This document shows, piece after piece, positions 4,019-13,749 of a DNA stretch of 64,000 nt. How positions within the stretch are numbered: position 1 is the stretch's first letter; every line of letters begins with the position of its first letter. The notes beneath the pieces were generated by a model that saw only the letters and a list, made by a program, of their open reading frames with translations, made no database searches and was not told the DNA's origin. The translations under genes were made by a program, and so were the position numbers. The DNA lies in contig AP026133.1 of assembly GCA_030295235.1 (NCBI GenBank), positions 930,001 to 994,000 of the forward strand, read 5' to 3'. This DNA comes from Fistulifera solaris. Lineage: Eukaryota.

Positions 4019-4690
4019 TCATATCTCCACTCGCTCCAGCGCGTGTGTCCCTGAGGACTCCAAGGATTGCAGACTATTGCTTAAATCGTGATTCGCGAGG
4101 TAATGATGAATGCCTACTATTTCATTTTGAACAGGAGCGTCGAAGAACACCCGGCGTTTCGAAAGTACGAGCAGACGTAACATTAAACAGGCTCGCAGTA
4201 TTTCCGGTTTTTCTTTAACTTTCGGAACAAGAGCGACTGTCCATTGTTTCAAAAGCAAATCTACCTCATCCAGCTTGGTTTTTGCTTGTTCAGCTTTATC
4301 GACATTTCTTTGTAAATTGCTGCCAGTTCTAGATTCGGCAAAATACACCATCGCCAAATTGTACAAAATGACCGCGGGCGTGAAGGGACATTTGGGCATC
4401 AACCGAATAACAACAAGCGTGCGAGGGAAGCTGAGAACGCGAACGCGCTCCATAAATGTCCGCGAGCTGGTAGCTGTGGTAATTTCCGAAAACTCCATCA
4501 CCGCCCACGAAGGTGCGGCTCCGTTCCGACGAGGTGGGGCTTCGGTCGAATACACTCGGCCCTTGGGCAATTGTTTGGTTTTTACCATCGTTTCCGCGTC
4601 TTCGAGTGCTTTTCTAGCAGGGATAAGGCAGTGACTCTCCAAAAGCATCAATCCGAGGTTATTGAAGTCACTGGCACGCTGCGGACCCAT
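4019..4690 (-). CDS. Hypothetical helical/TPR-like protein (223 aa)
   Basis: ATG-started ORF with TPR-like segments FNNLGLMLL and AVILYNLAMVY. Confidence 0.55.
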   Translation of the reverse strand: MGPQRASDFNNLGLMLLESHCLIPARKALEDAETMVKTKQLPKGRVYSTEAPPRRNGAAPSWAVMEFSEITTATSSRTFMERVRVLSFPRTLVVIRLMPKCPFTPAVILYNLAMVYFAESRTGSNLQRNVDKAEQAKTKLDEVDLLLKQWTVALVPKVKEKPEILRACLMLRLLVLSKRRVFFDAPVQNEIVGIHHYLANHDLSNSLQSLESSGTHALERVEI

Positions 4691-5225
4691 GTTTCTTGTG
4701 AGCCTTAGCTACGAACGACTGAAATAATTCGTCAGCACTGCCTCGACAGAAATGAATCAGTTTGTTGAGTCGCGCAAAGGCACTTGGGAGGTGAAGATTG
4801 CACCATTCAATCGTGTGGTTTCAGATATACAACAAGCAACGACGCTGTTATTTTCAGCCTTCGAGTAGGTTCAACAAAAAAAGCAGATTGCCTCGGCCAC
4901 TTGTCACTTGTCACTCTTGTTTTCTTTCTGCTCTTAGTTCGCGTTGAGCGTTTGACGAGTGGGGGGCGTAGATGTTTTTATCGAAATCCACATCAAGACG
5001 GGATTGTGGGATTGGATCAAATTGCAAGTGTGAGTACGGATATGCCTTACTGGAATGTTCTTCGTGCCACATTTCTTAATTGCAATGTTCAACCGGTTTT
5101 GACGTTGATTTACGCTTAGGTCAGTAAGCAGATGACACGGGACACCGAGACACTATGCGTTATTATAACAGTATGAGGCATAACAAGATCACCAATAATA
5201 AATTTTCCTAAGAGACATAAGCAAG

Positions 5226-5396
5226 AGCACAGGAGACTGCGGGAAATATGATAATTATGAAAAATGGAAATAACATGAAAATTTATTGTTTAATTCAACT
5301 GCAAAATTTCGAAAAATGGACAAACTGCTGCTACTTTACATAAAAATAGATCAAAATACGAAAAATGAGATTTTGAGTTTTTCGTGGCTGAGAACT
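5226..5396 (+). repeat. Left terminal inverted repeat (bipartite, imperfect)
   Basis: 5226-5281 matches the reverse complement of 12247-12302. 5353-5396 matches the reverse complement of 12130-12173 (38/44). Confidence 0.9.
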
Positions 5397-6223
5397 TAGC
5401 TCACGCTTACCTGGTAGCGCGGTTTCAGCGTTACTGGAGTCGAATGAGGCCGTCAGTCCGCTGCCGATGCCTGTGACGTATATACGGACCGACGACACAA
5501 GATTGGAAAACCTTGAGCCGAGTCGAGCAGTCGAGGGTCCAAACTCAAAGGTAAATAAAAATCTCGATGTTCTTATCGTCGTTGTTCACTATCATCCACA
5601 TTGTAGCACATTCAGTTTCTGTGTCTTCCTGTGATTGACTGTCGAGTGCGGCGTGTGAAGTGTGAAGTCTGAAGGAATAAAGGATTATTGTACGATCTGG
5701 AGTCTGGAGTCTGGAGTCAGAAGTAGGAAGTTGCGAAGTAACACTGCCAACTGCCACGCACCATTCAAGAAATTTTTATGTAGTAACAATGATCAAAAAT
5801 AGCTTTGATTTTTATAGCCTGCCGCGTCATAAGCCCCTTCAACTAGTGCCACCTGCCGCAAATTGATTTCTGTATGCCGAATGCCGACTGCCGACTGTGA
5901 GAGAAATTGCAGTAACAATTAACAATTCAATTTGGAACGCGGTACTGTCATATGATCGGCTCGCACTCGTGACTTCTTCTATATCGTGAATAGTAGGTGG
6001 TCTTGGCGACATCGTCCTTTTCCACGCTAAGCATTACAGTCTCCATTGAGACTCTCTTAAGTAGTAGGAGAGTTTCATGGAAGAATTGCCGTTCTCTTCC
6101 TCTCTCCATCTCGCACTTTGATCGTCAACCTTCAATTATCACGAGGGCCGGGAACTCCCACAAATAATCACAAATCACTCTGCGGCGCATTTCAAACGAC
6201 AATAACAACAGATCTTATCAGCA

Positions 6224-7609
6224 ATGCCAAAGAAAAACGACAACGGCGTTGATGCGAATCTTCCGAAATGGGCGGTACAAAGGGCTGGCACACTCTCATC
6301 TTCATGCTGAGCAAGAAGATGATTTCAGTCGAAAGTAAATCTGCTGGTGGTCAAGGACCGGCAGAGGTGAGAGCCATGAGCCCTCTCTTCAAATACAAAT
6401 TGGCCAACTTTACCGCCAATCTTGATAAGATTCGGAAGAATTGGAATGGGAAGAAAAAAGAGTGGCTCAAAATCTTGGACACCAACGAAGTCGACCCAGA
6501 AATTCTTGCAAAGGCCGGAGCAGCGGGAAATGGGGGAAATGCGGGAAACGAAGGTGGTGGTGACGACGACGACGATGATGATAACGGCGATGCCGGTTTG
6601 GGTGATCTAGACAATGAATTCGGTGGTAAGCGTTCTTCTGCTTCTAGATTTTTTTCTTCTATCTGACAAATTTCCATTTTTTACAGGCATGAACTTGGAT
6701 CCGGAAGGTGATGCTGAGAAGAAAGCAACACCAAAGAAAGACATCAAGAAGCCAGACTCGGAAGAAATCGTGCTGCCGAACCTTGTGATCGGATGGATGG
6801 GTTCAAACCAGGCGCAGAATCTGACAGTTATCGCGACGCCTTCCTGCGAAGCCTTACGCACTCCAGCTCCAGGAAGTGGTTTGAAGAGCTACGTCACTGC
6901 GTACATTGAAAATTCCCTCACAGCCACAATCGCTATTGATGTGACTGACGATACTATCCATGATCCTATCAAATTCTACGACAAATTCTGGGGTCGCTAG
7001 CCAAATTCGGTACAGAGCACGTGAAAGTTGTCGGACACCACACTGCAGTCCGTCTTCTCAAGAACAACAACCCTCGCAAGCGCATCATCAAAAAGTGCCG
7101 CATCCAATTGCCTTTTGAAGTCGAACTTCAGTGGAATCCTGATATCCCGACGGTCGAGCAGCTGGTCATGCTCAAAATTGGAGTAGACGGTAGTCAAGAG
7201 CAATACGTTGTCATGGAGATGAAGGAAGCCCTTGCAAAGGAATTCAAAAGCCACAACGTTTCTGTCGCATGGGATACTTGTTATGATGACGAACCAGTAG
7301 TAGCTACGAATGATGGAACGGCCACTGGTGCTGCGGCAAATGTTCCACGCTCGGAAGATGATGATGAAGGCGATGAAATGGACATTGACCGAGACCCCAA
7401 GAAACGCAAGTCTTACGTTGCCGAGACCGACCGCACGAAGAACCTACAGCGACTTTGTTGACCATCTGATGAAAGGAGTTCCGGTTGAGACTGTGAATGA
7501 GACAGATGAAAAGGAGAAGGATGACGGAAAGAAGACAAAGACGGTTCCTATTGGCCAGCCGAAAGATGGCTCTCATTACAAGACTGATACGAATCACGCC
7601 ACAGCTTAA
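6224..7609 (+). CDS. Transposon cargo ORF A: N-terminal helical domain, Gly/Asp linker, shared cargo domain, acidic tail
   Basis: ATG at 6224 and a GT-AG intron at 6626-6686 join ORFs 6268 and 6614 in frame. One missing G at about 6270 and one at about 6990 would give a continuous ORF into 7021-7461. A further shift into the 7310-7609 frame is possible. Contains HVKVVGHHTAVRLLK...RIQLPFEVE. Confidence 0.7.
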
Positions 7610-7707
7610 ACGCTTACGAGGATAAAAGCTGATTGGCTTTGTCTAGTATATATTTCTACAACTATTATAGTATATCGTAATGTATTTGATGCTAGATTGC
7701 TTTATCA

Positions 7708-8347
7708 TCAAGTTTGAGGCATGCGAATATTGCGTTTGGCACCCTGAGCTAAAGGAGAATAGAAACCGTCGTATTCTCCTTGCATTTCCAAACCTGCTGT
7801 AATCTCAGGACAGTTCCGCGCTCCCATAAAAGCAATGCGAGATCCACTCGGATACTCCTCCGCAATCGAACAAAAGTTAGGTAGTACCGCCATTGGTAGT
7901 TTCTGCTTGTGAACATAAACAATAGAATTTGCCATTGATGTCGTCTTGAGGTCTTTGATAGCCTTCATATGGGCGACAACCTTTGGGTGTGTTTCCGAGT
8001 AAGCAGCCCCGTTGTTGCGTGACACAGCACGCCAGAATTCTGCAGGCATCATCATGTACGAATTGTCCCCCTTCATCCGAATCTCAGTTTCGGTCCGAGA
8101 CTCGTTAATGGAGCAATGGACATCCGCTTGGTCAACACCAGAGAGCAGAACTGTCTGCTGTGACAATCGCTTGTACTCCAGGTCTTCCCATTTGTAAAGG
8201 AGTGAGCCTGGGAGTTTGACAGGGACTTCAATGGTTCTCACACGTTCGTCGTTATCGTCGTAGTCTGGGTCGAAGCATCAAAGAAAACGGATCAGTTAGC
8301 AAGAAATTGTTGAAGCCGATCAAACAGGAACGCTACATACCAGCCAT
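7708..8347 (-). CDS. Transposon cargo ORF B (187 aa), essentially the shared cargo domain alone
   Basis: 7-nt first coding exon ATGGCTG (8347-8341), then an intron GTATG...GCTAAC...CAG (8340-8265), then exon 2 (8264-7708) in frame, giving MADYDDNDERVRTIEVPVKLPGSLLYKW...HPKVVAH. Confidence 0.8.
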
Positions 8348-8636
8348 TATGGATTTTTTTCAAGAGGACATTGTCAACAAGATGCAAGATGCAATTGAAA
8401 TGAGCTTGGCCAAGGTCAACGAATCGCAGCGATTTGCATAGTGAGTGCTTGCTGCGGGCGCACTGCTCGTGCTCGGTCTTTTGTCAAAGGAGCGAAAAAA
8501 GCCCAGAACTTGCGAAGTGTGTGTGTCTTCTGTAAAATAATAATGATGAATATCAAACTTCACTTGGTACGCTTCATTGTTCTATAGTTATAGATTAAAC
8601 AAGCCCAGTACACTGTACTAATGAGCCAAAGGAATT

Positions 8637-8875
8637 TTATGTTTTTTGTTACGTTATGTTATGTTATGTTATGTTATGTTATGTTATGTTATGTTTTGTT
8701 ATGTTTAGTTAGGTTCAGTTATGTTTTTACTACTCGAAAAAAAGATGGTACAACTTTTGTGTAGATTCTACTCGATTCACGAGTACATTTTTCAGACACG
8801 TTATGTTATGTTATGTTTTGTTATGTTATGTTAGGTTAGGTTATGTTATGTTATGTTATGGTATGTTATGGTATT
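8637..8875. repeat. (GTTAT)n pentanucleotide array, two blocks (about 8637-8725 and 8800-8875)
   Basis: Directly visible tandem GTTAT with GTTAG, GTTTT and GGTAT variants. Confidence 0.95.
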
Positions 8876-9385
8876 CTTTTCTGTAATGTTTTCAGTAATA
8901 AGTTATGATTTCAGTACAAAATGTATATAGAGAACAAGGAACACGTTGAACTGTCAATTTCTCTGTATCTTTCTAAACTAGCTTCTTCCTTTGTCATACT
9001 CGATACTCGATACTCGATCCGTCAACATTAACGACTGATTACTGATCAAGATGCATACTCTGAGTTTCTACTGTAGCTCCATTCCCAGTTTCGCTTCCCC
9101 TCATTCTAGTGTACCGAGTGTGTGTGTGTGTGTGTTGAGTGTTGAGGTGTTGAGTGATGGATTGGACAGTCTCGAGGAGGAGGAGGAGTCGTCTCGAGTG
9201 TGTGTGTTTTTCGTGTGATGATGATGAGATGAAAAGGACGACACGCTGGTGCGCACTGCCTGTTGCGGTTTCCGCCATCATCATTCTTGTCACAGCTCAA
9301 ATCCGATTCTCCAGTCAAGCCCAAATTCTTACGGAATCTCAGAAGCCTCACCAACTTTCAAAAATACACAAATATCACGAAAACC

Positions 9386-10702
9386 ATGTCTGAGTTTGGC
9401 GAGAGCGAAGAGACCGTCATTATTGAGGGGAAACTCCCCGCGTCCCTCATATATAGCTGGCATGATAGGCATGCCAATCTTCGCATTTCACAATACACAA
9501 ACCTTCTTTCTGGTCTCCGTCAACGAACCGCATATGGTAGAGAAATTGTTGAATGTTGTGTTGATGAAGAAGGGACTGAAATTATGATTGACATCACGGA
9601 CTCTGCCATGTTCCGCGACGATTTCTTTGTCAACTACGGCAATAGAAGCGAGGATCACCCGCTTGTCGTTGCGCATAGGCTGAAAATGAAGGAACTCAAA
9701 GGTGACAGCAAGAAGATACTGTTCTCGCATCGTGAGACTATCGAAGAAGGCACGGTCACACTGAAAAGAATGGATGATATTGATTCTCAAGCCTTCCGTA
9801 TCATTAGAAGGAACAATACATCTGGGGAAGAAACAGATACTGTTGCAGCAATTGAAATGGAAAGTAACTCTTTGAACTTTGTAGGTCAGGAGCACGGCCA
9901 GCTCAAAACACTTTCTATGCCGGATCGAATGGACACGACTCCTTCTACTGAGTCGAGCCAGGAGCCGCAAATGGCTTTGAACGAGCTATCTGTGGCTGAC
10001 ATGATTCAGCAACCGAACCACCAGCCTGTCTTTCAAACACTGACACGCGATGTCACTGTAGCAAAGCAGGAACACAGCGAGGATTCTTTTATTTCTACTT
10101 TCGTGGAGCAGCAAACTGTTGTACAGCAGCTTTCGAAAAGATCCATTGTAAGCTCGGGTGGCTCACTAACCAAAGCCCTTGTGTCGGATGCGTCTTATGA
10201 GATGAGCCGCAAGGTCAAAAGCCGCGGCCGAGATTCAACGTTCGACCAGACTTGGACGGATTCACAAAAGAAAACAGCAGACCAGCTAGTTACATCCGAA
10301 GTGCATGGCAACCTACCTGGGACAAACGACGGACTGATGTCAGCATTCAACGAGAATATGGGTGCTTGGTATACCATCAAGATAGGAGAAACAGCAGAGA
10401 TACCAAGTGTTGCAGCAAGACTCGCGAATCTCCGCCCTACCCGACCATCATCTCTCTCAAGGGCGATAGCTGCGATACCAGCTAATCCTTCAGATGACGT
10501 AGCTGAACAAGCATTGGCTCTAAATCAAGTGCCAATTGACGTGGAAATGAATTACGAATCACTGGGAAAACGTGATTTTGAATTTTTCAGTACGAGTGTT
10601 GACGCTGGAAAGGAACCGAGGCACGGGGGGAGATTGTTGTGTACGAGGGCAACCAAACTTCAAGTAACCTTGTTCACACTGCCAAGCACCTGTAATCCTT
10701 GA
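9386..10702 (+). CDS. Transposon cargo ORF C (about 438 aa): shared cargo domain plus long low-complexity tail
   Basis: Open frame 9263-10702 with first ATG at 9386. KLPASLIYSWHD...LLSGL...EDHPLVVAH is clearly homologous to ORF B. Confidence 0.8.
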   Translation: MSEFGESEETVIIEGKLPASLIYSWHDRHANLRISQYTNLLSGLRQRTAYGREIVECCVDEEGTEIMIDITDSAMFRDDFFVNYGNRSEDHPLVVAHRLKMKELKGDSKKILFSHRETIEEGTVTLKRMDDIDSQAFRIIRRNNTSGEETDTVAAIEMESNSLNFVGQEHGQLKTLSMPDRMDTTPSTESSQEPQMALNELSVADMIQQPNHQPVFQTLTRDVTVAKQEHSEDSFISTFVEQQTVVQQLSKRSIVSSGGSLTKALVSDASYEMSRKVKSRGRDSTFDQTWTDSQKKTADQLVTSEVHGNLPGTNDGLMSAFNENMGAWYTIKIGETAEIPSVAARLANLRPTRPSSLSRAIAAIPANPSDDVAEQALALNQVPIDVEMNYESLGKRDFEFFSTSVDAGKEPRHGGRLLCTRATKLQVTLFTLPSTCNP

Positions 10703-10822
10703 GGAAGGCACCCACCAAGAACCAAAAATCTGAAGAAGAATAAATTGCGCGCCTATTCTCATTCATTCGATTAAAGTTTGCATGCTATAGGTTAATTGAA
10801 TGATATTTATCTACTTTAGTGT

Positions 10823-11753
10823 CTACTTCGGTAGAGAGTTGATAGGGTTATCGGTTTTTAGTCGAAGCTGTACAACCGATGCAACTGCTCGGAAGTAATA
10901 AACATGCCGTTTCAATTCATGTCGGAATTGCTGGCGCAGACATCCAAACCGCTTAATTCGTTGATTTACGTTTTCATGACGCGCCAAAGCTTTTCCAATC
11001 AAAATCAATTTCCCTTTCTGATGACCACGATTTTTTATTGTCAGCTGGGAGATCGAACGATAGCCTTGGTCTGCTATTCCTTTTTCACCCTTCGAAAGCT
11101 GACCGGCAAGGTTTCGTCGAAAAATCTTTGAATCAGGAAATTCCCCGCAAGAAAAAGGGCCATTGATCCAGATCATTTCACTGTCAAAAAGCGAGACAGC
11201 AATTTCATAACGTAGTCCGGCGCTTCTGAATTTGTGCGAATACCATTTGGGCGAAAACGGACTCGGTTCGTTAATCGGACAGTCAGTCCCATCAACCGAA
11301 AATGTATGAATACCAGATTTCGTTCGGCTGTTCCACTTTATCTATAAGAAAACATATTGTTAGCGATATACAAAGTGCAACAGGTAATCAGCGCAAAAGA
11401 CTTACCAATCGAGTAGAGAGCAATGCCAGTGCAGTGATAAACTGGTCGGACCACTTTCGAAAGGTCTTTTCATCGCATCCGGCCATGCCACTTAAAACTT
11501 CCTCTGTTGCATAAACTTTCAATTTCAGTAGGGCCCAAAGCAGATGCTTGAAGCGTCCATTCTCAGGGACTTTCAATAAGATCCACAGCTGAGAGCATTG
11601 TGTTGGCGATACGCCAAAGTGCGACATGAAGCGTCGCGTTTGAACCAAAGTGGGCTTGTAGCTGCGCATGTCCAGCGACTCGCCCATTATGAAACACCCA
11701 CTTCTCAAGAACTCTCTAGTCTGATTAGAAGAATAATTAAACTGTATCTTCAT
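10823..11753 (-). CDS. PIF/Harbinger-type DDE transposase (DDE_Tnp_4-like), 288 aa, 2 exons, intact
   Basis: Exon 11753-11406, intron 11405-11342 (GTAAG...GCTAAC...TAG), exon 11341-10823. Motifs F..HFG, KHLLWALLKLKVY, SVDGTDC, YSHKF, ADQGY and ARHENVN. Confidence 0.93.
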
Positions 11754-12129
11754 CGTAACTTGATGATCCAATCACCAAGAAAAATTCTACTTGTTGACAG
11801 CTGAATGGCTGAATGTGCGAGAGCGTGACAAATCGCAACTTTCTGTTTGTGTGTGTACGGAGTCGAGGACTCTATCGCCAAATGTCGTTGCCAGTTGCCA
11901 GGATGGTGGCATTGTCATATATGTGCTTGTGTATCGTTTCCACTGTACTTTGTAGGCTCCACGCTCCACGCTGCACGATTTTTTCAGCACTACGAACCAC
12001 GACTGAGGTCAGGATTTCAGTCTCTGTTGTTGGTCCGTATGACCGTCTCGTACTTGGTACGTAGCACGTAGCACAGTACTGCACCGGCAACTGCAGTGTG
12101 CAATTTTTCTACAATCTCTGCGAATTCAG

Positions 12130-12302
12130 AGTTCGCATCCAGGAAAAATTCAAAATCGCATTTTTTGTATTTTTTCTGTTTTTTAAAGAAAATCAACAGT
12201 GCGCCTTGATTCAAAGGACATTTTACAGGTACATCAATGCCTATCTTTTTCGTGTTATTTCCAGTTTTCATAGTTATCATATTTCCCGCAGTCTCCGGTG
12301 CT
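12130..12302 (-). repeat. Right terminal inverted repeat
   Basis: Reverse complement of 5226-5396 in two conserved blocks. Confidence 0.9.
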
Positions 12303-13161
12303 AAGACCTCAACACTCAACAAATATCTAAACAGCTAAAAACACTACCAGTATAAAGTTCTGCCATAAAAAGTAAAAAATATGCCAGTATCAATTTCTAC
12401 TTTTTCAAAATCAGAATGCAATTTCGACATTCGATTGATTTTTCCATTGTTCTTTCTCATTTTTCACAAAACCGTTTCGAGACATGTACTAAGCACTTTG
12501 TGCGGTCTTCGGTTGTGGCTCAAGGGCTTATGATGTCCCTTATTCCGTACAACGTGTGCCACTTCCTACTTTCCGCCAAGAGTGGTTTCAAGAGTTAACA
12601 AGATACTCCGTACATTTCACGATGTTTCCAGTCTTGAGTCTTGATTTTCCCGATTGCCTAAAATGCCTCGTAAAATGAACGAATGATGGCTAAAGCTGAA
12701 AGTCACAAGTCTCAGAGAGTTGATAGTTGAAAGTTGAACCATCCTACTACCAAGCAGCGATAGCAGGTAGATTTGGATTTCTGATGGTTGCTAATTCTTG
12801 TATGGCTGAAAAGTGGCCGATGGCAAAAGCAATCAATCATGAATTGGACTTTGTTTCATTAACCAGCACGGACTACCGGAAACTTGTTTGCATGATCTTG
12901 CGAACTTTCCAGTCGCTTTCTTACCATTGGCATCATTAGTTCACCTCTTATTCCCCAAATTCAGCAGGTGCTGTAGAACTTGCTTGCTGTATCGGATGTG
13001 CACCGACCGTCTTAACCTATGACCTTCATGAAAACAGATTGATGACGATCTTTCATCTACAAATGATTGGGAGAAGCATTTCGGCAATATGTATGAATTA
13101 ATATCACAACTAGCTTATAAATTACCTATTGAAACAAAACACGGGAATCGCTGAATATTCT

Positions 13162-13749
13162 TCATCGATTTGCTTGGTCTGTTTCCATCTTGTTTTCAGC
13201 CGCTTCTTCTACTTTGCTGACATCGACCGAAGCATTCTCATTCTGCATGTATGTAATTGGAATCTTGCGGACACTTGCTTCCAGCTTCTTCACGTCTTTA
13301 GGCGCCATAACGATCAACACCCCGTCCTTCAAATTTGCAGTCAAAGCATCCACATCGACGCTGGGGTCAAGCAAGAAACGTTGTGTAAACTTCGATGACA
13401 TGCTGTGGCCATCCTCTTTCATTTCATGGCTGCCTTTTATCGACAAGACTTTTCCATCATTTTCCAAGCTGACTTGAACGTCGTCTTGAGTCATGCCTGG
13501 CACTTCTACCGTAATCTTGAAGGCGTCCGTCTCATCGACAATATCATACCGAGGATATGCCTGACTGAAAAAATCACGATTCACAAGATTTTGGAGCTGC
13601 TGGTGTCGCTGATGGATCAGCGAACGAGTCGAGGTCGGGTAAAAGAAAGCACTGGTAGTCGGATCACGCAGAACCAAATCAGATCCGAACAACCAAGCAC
13701 TCGCCATGGGTGATAGCATGAGGAATCCGAAGGCTGAGTTGAGCTTCAT
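13162..13749 (-). CDS. Small heat-shock protein (HSP20/alpha-crystallin) with N-terminal signal peptide
   Basis: VEVPGMTQDDVQVSLEN...FTQRFLLDPSVD...LKDGVLIVMAPK and C-terminal IPI motif. N-terminus MKLNSAFGFLMLSPMASA|W. Confidence 0.92.
   Translation of the reverse strand: MKLNSAFGFLMLSPMASAWLFGSDLVLRDPTTSAFFYPTSTRSLIHQRHQQLQNLVNRDFFSQAYPRYDIVDETDAFKITVEVPGMTQDDVQVSLENDGKVLSIKGSHEMKEDGHSMSSKFTQRFLLDPSVDVDALTANLKDGVLIVMAPKDVKKLEASVRKIPITYMQNENASVDVSKVEEAAENKMETDQANR

Follow-up and report, generated by a model that had tools for sequence, protein, structure and literature searches.

The stretch analysed here (the window) comprises 64,000 nucleotides of contig AP026133.1 from Fistulifera solaris (assembly GCA_030295235.1, positions 930,001 to 994,000 of the forward strand) and is eukaryotic-looking in character, with short GT..AG introns and a G+C content of 41-50%. 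It contains a Harbinger/NuwaI-like transposon of ~7.07 kb (5232..12296, no strand assigned), which is delimited by its terminal inverted repeats (TIRs) and by contig breaks in a public sequencing run, and which encloses a transposase gene together with three further genes, designated A, B and C, whose products have a domain in common. The left and right TIRs (5232..5281, plus strand, and 12247..12296, minus strand) lie within a longer inverted repeat whose 56-nt arms, 5226-5281 and 12247-12302, are complementary at 93%. Positions 5100-12400 were compared with the contigs of public runs, including X1 and X2, which come from one study and of which X2 is RNA-like. The X1 contigs end at exactly 5232 and 12296 and then run on into several different flanks, with at least four different right flanks at a depth of 14.6-25.2, and the X1 depth is even over the whole element at 63-66 versus 12-25 in the flanks. 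This depth pattern, together with the multiple right flanks, points to a low-copy element with near-identical copies. One reading of the ends is CAG/GAGACTGC...GCAGTCTC/CGG inside a palindromic AGCA...TGCT context (5226-5233 and 12295-12302), which gives a candidate 3-bp duplication (CAG at 5230-5232 versus CGG at 12296-12298) in which two of three letters agree and of which the empty site was not seen. X1 contigs also exit the element at the inner positions 5717 and 6176 into other sequence, and these loose ends suggest relatives or deletion derivatives that have only the left 0.5-0.9 kb in common with it.

The transposase (288 amino acids; 10823..11753, minus strand) is encoded by two exons, 11753-11406 and 11341-10826, the latter followed by the stop codon, and its intron (11405-11342) is removed in an X2 spliced contig that joins 11341 to 11406, the skipped part being bounded by GT..AG on the minus strand. 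Exon 2 matches DDE_Tnp_4 with an E-value of 9.7e-9 and 35.5 bits (Pfam cut-off, 24.8) over profile positions 1-153 of 158. In its textbook form, a PIF/Harbinger transposon has two genes, one for a transposase and one for a Myb-like DNA-binding helper. Among the 80 open reading frames (ORFs) of at least 45 amino acids in the element, none matches a Myb, SANT or MADF family at E ≤ 0.01, and the transposase exon is the only one with a match to any Pfam family at that threshold; the sole trace of these helper families is a sub-threshold MADF row (E 0.03-0.054) located inside the transposase itself. According to excerpts of the description by Han et al. (2015, PMC4482050), NuwaI elements occur in animals only, average ~4.5 kb, encode two ORFs (a transposase and a Myb/SANT protein), have TIRs of 12-61 bp and generate a CWG 3-bp target-site duplication. 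Our element resembles this group in its DDE_Tnp_4 transposase, in TIRs that fit the 12-61 bp range and in flanks (CAG to the left, CGG to the right) that may represent a 3-bp duplication of CWG type with one mismatch. It differs from the group in its length (7.07 kb), its residence in a diatom-like genome, the presence of three genes for proteins of predicted HSP20-like fold and the lack of a detected Myb/SANT ORF.

Gene B (7708..8347, minus strand) was predicted from the sequence to start with an exon of only 7 bases (ATGGCTG, 8347-8341), followed by a 76-base intron (8340-8265), a second exon (8264-7711) and a stop codon (7710-7708). An X2 contig joins 8264 to 8341 and skips precisely these 76 letters, with GT..AG borders on the minus strand; at a depth of 352.8, it is the most deeply covered spliced contig. 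X2 contigs lack the introns of both gene B and the transposase, which are still present in X1, and the coding part of gene B is free of differences between the window and the X1/X2 contigs. Gene C (9386..10702, plus strand) is a single open frame of 438 amino acids in the window; an additional letter at 10624 and 22 additional letters at 10685 distinguish its tail in the X1 and X2 version, and the second of the X2 contigs also extends over the gene, from 9546 onward. Contigs of a freshwater RNA library (X5) match B and C without differences and were not counted as proof of transcription, since DNA is possibly present in that library. The spacer between the divergent genes B and C contains pentanucleotide-type repeats (CATAA/TTATG-like) and a CA/GT run, at 8637-8884 and 9109-9144, and contigs are interrupted at its simple repeats.

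Gene A (6225..7609, plus strand) consists of exon 1 (~6225-6625), a GT..AG intron (6626-6686) and exon 2 (6687-7609), and its frame in the window copy is broken at 6998-6999 and again at 7448. Relative to the window, the X1 contig is shorter by two letters at 6998 and by one at 7448; once these differences are applied, exon 2 becomes a single open frame (6687-7606). Gene A is thus undamaged in X1, and its frame breaks are confined to the copy or assembly that the window represents. More generally, the window copy differs from the X1/X2 contigs mostly by small insertions and deletions (at 6235-6273, 6835-6847, 6998, 7448, 10624 and 10685), which reflect either a decaying copy or assembly error. 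Exon 1 of gene A includes a run of seven Asp residues (6530-6590, plus strand), and in the tail of the gene (7340-7420, plus strand) acidic residues precede a basic, PKKRK-like segment that may be a nuclear localisation signal. Both A and C append long tails to the domain that they share with B.

That A, B and C have a domain in common had been proposed in a first-pass annotation made from the letters alone, and the proposal is borne out by our comparisons. B and C recover one another by tblastn (E 5e-11, 34% identity over 124 residues), and a family profile built from B, C and the relatives described below, with A left out, was run against the 1287 six-frame ORFs of the window. Nothing was retrieved except B (8.4e-77), C (2.6e-51) and, for A, its second half (8.5e-5); the first half is colinear with the profile and weak (E 2.7). 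With the frame break bridged by an X, A reaches an E-value of 2.7e-8 over profile positions 60-184 of this same A-free profile, and BLASTP of A finds the relatives P0011 (2.8e-11) and P0008 (2e-10). We place the domain of A, the most diverged copy, at 6746..7293 (plus strand), with non-circular support for 6890-7251. When B was searched exhaustively against 1.84 billion representative proteins, ten relatives emerged at E ≤ 0.001, of which three reach E ≤ 1e-30; a profile search contributed one more, so that the family set comprises 14 members (A, B, C and 11 relatives). Just one of the relatives is named, a hypothetical protein from the diatom F. solaris; the others are environmental and assembly records, and the family as a whole is rare and unnamed. 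In the tree, B clusters with P0001-P0003 (support 98/97), with A and C on long branches; this grouping indicates that the paralog types are older than the element's recent spread, and A, B and C are, by sequence, old paralogs. Their products are mostly acidic, with isoelectric points of 5.0-6.3 in 11 of the 14 members.

Other routes to relatives yielded little. A word-index protein search with B alone recovered one relative among 18 candidates, and the same search with the C domain found none among 74. A metagenome scan with B gave 104 pattern matches, none of which was confirmed, and three pattern matches in viral contigs were likewise unconfirmed. Two loci from a metagenome scan with P0008 (L001 and L002) were rejected as false positives, no match to the family profile being found at E ≤ 1 among 325 ORFs. 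Members of two different paralog types (among P0006, P0014, P0008, P0018, P0004, P0013 and P0011) display equal longest-contig sizes (3889, 2673 and 3025), a coincidence which hints that, in other organisms too, two types may be neighbours on a single contig.

AlphaFold2 models of B and C, both calculated from the 14-row alignment (effective number of sequences 3.25 in a 12-row version), predict that the ~160-residue core of the family is an HSP20-like beta-sandwich. For B, the modelled sandwich spans 7771..8244 (minus strand; residues 8-165 of the 185-residue reading), with a mean predicted local distance difference test score (pLDDT) of 83.8 and a predicted template modelling score (pTM) of 0.75, the five models ranging from 81.2 to 83.8. 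It is composed of strands 11-15, 21-27, 32-39, 49-53, 59-65, 114-122, 142-149 and 152-163 and of helices 74-82 and 94-106. The domain of C (9407..9883, plus strand, residues ~8-166) was modelled with the same order of elements (pLDDT 80.4, pTM 0.70; helices at 78-84 and 92-105). A structure search of the B model against 48,161 chains of the PDB, in which Foldseek was not used, placed 4rzk_B, the alpha-crystallin domain (ACD) of Sulfolobus solfataricus Hsp20.1, on top (Z 10.8, root-mean-square deviation 3.1 A, 87 of 87 residues). Of the best 50 rows for B, 46 are small heat-shock proteins (sHSPs) or CS/p23/NudC-type domains, two are Get3-type proteins, for which the match lies in the C-terminal domain, and the other two are unrelated. 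The alignments cover 82-113 residues of the ~160 spanned. Foldseek itself listed sHSP or CS structures in 33 of the 34 rows shown for B, with probabilities of up to 1.00, and a second comparison restricted to its candidates gave a Z of 11.1 for 4rzk_A, with 72 of 996 chains at Z ≥ 8. For C, the structure search returned 6gxz_E (Z 8.5), 3eud_A (Z 8.1) and 4rzk_B (Z 8.0), and 42 of the 50 best rows are of sHSP or CS type.

The first-pass annotation had reached an alpha-crystallin/HSP20 fold by eye, from strings that are all present at the locus: in B, WEDLEYKRLSQQ... (8190-8155, minus strand) and QKLPMAV (7905-7885, minus strand); in A, IQLPFEV (7102-7122, plus strand); the His-containing segments HPKVVAH (7989-7969), HPLVVAH (9656-9676) and VVGH (7027-7038); and a string of a true sHSP at 13536-13495 (minus strand). 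Its assignment of strands agrees with the B model, in which the quoted segments correspond to strands 32-39, 49-53 and 59-65 and QKLPMAV comes after strand 114-122. Predicted structures other than an HSP20-like sandwich were part of what it had named as refuting; with AlphaFold2 and the structure search, the B and C models came out as HSP20-like sandwiches. Thus, the call stands as a predicted fold; membership in HSP20 at the level of sequence does not, as none of the 14 members matches PF00011 (HSP20) at E ≤ 1, nor does any match PF04969 (CS) at this threshold.

The sHSP in question (13162..13749, minus strand), a gene of the host separated from the element's right end by 866 bases, served as a positive control and matches PF00011 at E 3.6e-18. 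It has no match to the family profile even at E ≤ 10 when all 1287 ORFs of the window are considered. Aligned with the family by hhalign, it yields precisely the 27 columns that had been matched to B by eye, at a level that does not rise above chance (probability 1%, E 0.055). The closeness of a true sHSP to transposon genes of predicted crystallin fold looks coincidental. Its N-terminus is hydrophobic and signal-like. Sequence searches of the PDB were equally silent, with one row at E 0.82 for B alone and a best E of 0.2 for the family profile (a Cu-Zn superoxide dismutase), no sHSP appearing, and looking up B and P0007 in the ESM Atlas brought no usable match.

Compared with sHSP ACDs (4rzk and Hsp16.5 of M. 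jannaschii), the B model has the same strand order, in keeping with the seven- to eight-stranded sandwich of ACD topology, and an L-P-x-x-V segment after the beta-7-like strand; it departs from them in lacking a PF00011 match, in having a two-helix insert in place of the beta-6 loop and in being encoded on a transposon. The A-x-x-x-n-G-v-L motif typical of sHSPs was not seen in the family. A different resemblance concerns the CS/p23 domains (PIH1D1, 6gxz; Shq1, 3eud; Sgt1, 2xcm and 1rl1; p23, 1ejf), seven-stranded sandwiches which score as high as the sHSPs: the CS domain of PIH1D1 (6gxz_E) aligns with B over 86 of 86 residues (Z 9.3, root-mean-square deviation 2.5) and, with 85 of 86 residues, is the top match of C. 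The protein p23 consists of a CS domain joined to a long tail, and A and C similarly join their domain to long tails, acidic in the case of A. Conversely, CS domains have no helical insert, and the family has no PF04969 match. As fold matches to these models, ACD and CS domains are indistinguishable. Tails of sHSPs carry a C-terminal I/V-x-I/V (I-x-I) anchoring motif. Some 10-15 residues past the last strand (in B, 7711-7740, minus strand), a hydrophobic-x-hydrophobic triplet after D or N occurs in several family members (NIRM in B, DVVM in P0001, DVRL in P0003, DFTF in P0009 and P0010) and is missing in others, in a tail of low pLDDT.

The conserved insert occupies the beta-5 to beta-7 connection. 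In non-metazoan sHSPs, this place is taken by the beta-6 loop (or a beta-6+7 strand), which forms a dimer interface; no such loop or strand was found in the B and C models, each of which has two helices there instead. The insert of B comprises ~47 residues (~66-112; 7930..8070, minus strand) and contains the HPKVVAH and L-K-x-x-S-x-x-N motifs, its pLDDT ranging from 77 to 95 by block. In keeping with the suggestion that an H..VV(A/G)H segment had been inserted between strands, the H-x-K-x-V-A-H motif lies in this helical insert, which separates strand five from the strand ending in QKLPMAV, and is located where the second helix begins. The only invariant columns of the family, H93 and K107 (B numbering), both fall in the insert, as do the near-invariant K95, A98, S110 and N113, with the near-invariant H119 on the following strand; within the motif, H99 lacks conservation. 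The pattern H-x-K...G-D-S-x-x-N resembles HKD, the motif of phospholipase D-type enzymes, but this similarity was rejected on account of a different spacing, a non-conserved Asp position and the predicted sandwich fold.

What these proteins contribute to the element can be approached from their fold and composition. The paralogy of A, B and C, their position in the element and the splicing of gene B and the transposase in contigs are direct observations. The HSP20-like fold is a protein-binding module in sHSPs and in Hsp90 co-chaperones. No enzyme or nucleic-acid-binding Pfam family was matched by the family, the best row (PDDEXK_3, E 0.048, below the cut-off and in one of 14 members) being attributed to chance and five others concerning one member each. 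The mostly acidic composition, the lack of an enzyme signature and the predicted protein-binding fold favour an adaptor or holdase role, and we think it somewhat probable that A, B and C, as old paralogs of predicted HSP20-like fold carried in a Harbinger/NuwaI-like element, act as non-catalytic accessory subunits of this kind. Under this model, they may bind one another, the transposase or a host chaperone, or may help transposase assembly or nuclear delivery, a DNA-binding role appearing less likely. A complex prediction for B with the C domain, computed without alignments and with a partner of uncertain fold, scored 0.00 and carries no weight for or against binding.

Several observations weigh against the adaptor/holdase reading. 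No sequence method ties the family to HSP20 or CS, and neither model had a Foldseek match at E ≤ 0.001, the best value for B being 3.2e-3; for C, the top Foldseek row is a porin-like protein (E 1.5e-2, probability 0.13), the sHSP rows following at E 0.14-0.35. The best Z of C in the structure search (8.5) is near the 7-8 that is common for models that have no clear match. In addition, the B and C models share one shallow alignment and are not independent tests of the fold. On the side of the genes, the transposon setting is known for the A, B and C of the window only, so that the family with its 11 relatives may not be specific to transposons, and gene A, besides being frame-broken in the window copy, is covered by no contig of the RNA-like run X2. 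Finally, that A, B and C bind the transposase or one another is a proposal only, and if they do not bind DNA, they alone cannot take over the end-binding role of a Myb-like protein.

Some of these points would also be expected if the fold call were a modelling artefact, AlphaFold2 having settled on a common small sandwich from 14 sequences when the true fold is different or new. The shallow alignment, the weak Foldseek E-values, a Foldseek list for C made up mostly of unrelated low-probability rows and the language-model look-ups of B and P0007, which recognised nothing, are all compatible with such an artefact. We nevertheless consider it improbable, given that the five B models agree (81.2-83.8), that one fold family accounts for 46-48 of the 50 best rows with the B model and for 42 of 50 with the C model in searches in which Foldseek was not used, that immunoglobulin or fibronectin sandwiches are absent among the 50 rows shown per search and that the strand order agrees with an assignment made independently by eye. 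With the sandwich accepted, its function could still reside elsewhere: the sandwich may be a mere scaffold for the helical insert, in which H93, K95, K107, S110, N113 and H119 would make up a site for ligand binding, nucleic-acid binding or catalysis and no chaperone-like role would exist. The concentration of the invariant H93 and K107 and of most near-invariant columns in or beside the insert fits this scenario, as does the fact that the insert, modelled at a block pLDDT of 77-95, separates the family from all matched structures. We regard it as unlikely, since the family comparisons produced no enzyme or nucleic-acid-binding match better than the PDDEXK_3 row, most members are acidic and H99 is not conserved. 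Little credence is also given to the notion that A, B and C are passengers, that is, captured host genes or genes merely situated between the ends, with no part in the element's life cycle. The broken gene A of the window copy and a transposon setting established for the window's genes and not for their relatives would be in line with it. On the other hand, three diverged paralogs are kept together in an element with near-identical copies, gene A is intact in the X1 version, gene B accounts for the deepest spliced contig (352.8), and the absence of a Myb-like gene means that some other helper is expected.

A further alternative shares the predicted fold with the adaptor/holdase reading and changes its purpose. 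Here the ACD-like proteins would act like IDM2 and IDM3 of Arabidopsis, bridging a methyl-DNA reader and a histone acetyltransferase and thereby keeping the element expressed. The first-pass annotation had stated as established that the Harbinger-derived HDP1 and HDP2 belong to an anti-silencing complex, and this is correct: excerpts of Duan et al. (2016, PMC5339849) report that HDP1 and HDP2 co-purify with IDM1, IDM2, IDM3 and MBD7. The same excerpts also state that neither HDP1 nor HDP2 directly interacts with IDM2, IDM3 or MBD7, which makes the analogy a loose one and the precedent weaker than had been stated. Harbinger-type and ACD-fold proteins would indeed be combined in one functional unit in both cases; in Arabidopsis, however, these proteins are products of host genes and the ACDs are recognisable HSP20 members, whereas A, B and C are transposon-borne and none of the 14 family members matches PF00011. 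The predicted fold in common with ACD proteins, the occurrence of spliced contigs for element genes and the transposase, and the precedent of counter-silencing cargo in fungal DNA transposons reported to carry a TET/JBP dioxygenase (PMC12730594, in excerpt) speak for a role in anti-silencing. Against it stand the indirect nature of the HDP1/HDP2 association, the lack of sequence kinship to HSP20-family ACDs, with CS domains matching equally well, and the fact that a methyl-binding or acetyltransferase partner is not known for the element. Overall, this role seems to us a rather remote prospect, and the idea that the element might be a transposon-borne counterpart of the Arabidopsis IDM complex is speculation by analogy.

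Returning to the reading of A, B and C as adaptor or holdase-type subunits, one can tentatively envision, as a possibility we rate as doubtful, that a transposon-encoded chaperone/adaptor module has replaced the Myb-like helper in a diatom Harbinger/NuwaI-like lineage, acting through transposase assembly and delivery or through anti-silencing. If true, cut-and-paste transposons would have a new class of accessory machinery, and the module would possibly be a free-living counterpart of the plant association between Harbinger-derived and ACD proteins. An expressed, Myb-less element with three orphan paralogs of chaperone-type fold would widen the known repertoire of transposon accessory proteins, and its family would define a new branch of the HSP20-like fold, unrecognisable by sequence and marked by a conserved His/Lys-bearing insert. 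A full-text term search of open-access papers and preprints found no description of a transposon encoding HSP20-like or CS-like proteins. The small size of the proteins and the low copy number of the element would offer a testable system for asking whether chaperone-like adaptors serve in transposase assembly or in the evasion of silencing.

Two minor features adjoin the element. To its left lies an ORF of 223 amino acids (4019-4690, minus strand) that has no Pfam match at E ≤ 0.1. To its right, the 19 nucleotides directly beyond its end (12303-12321) form an inverted repeat, 95% complementary, with positions 9133-9151 in the spacer between genes B and C.

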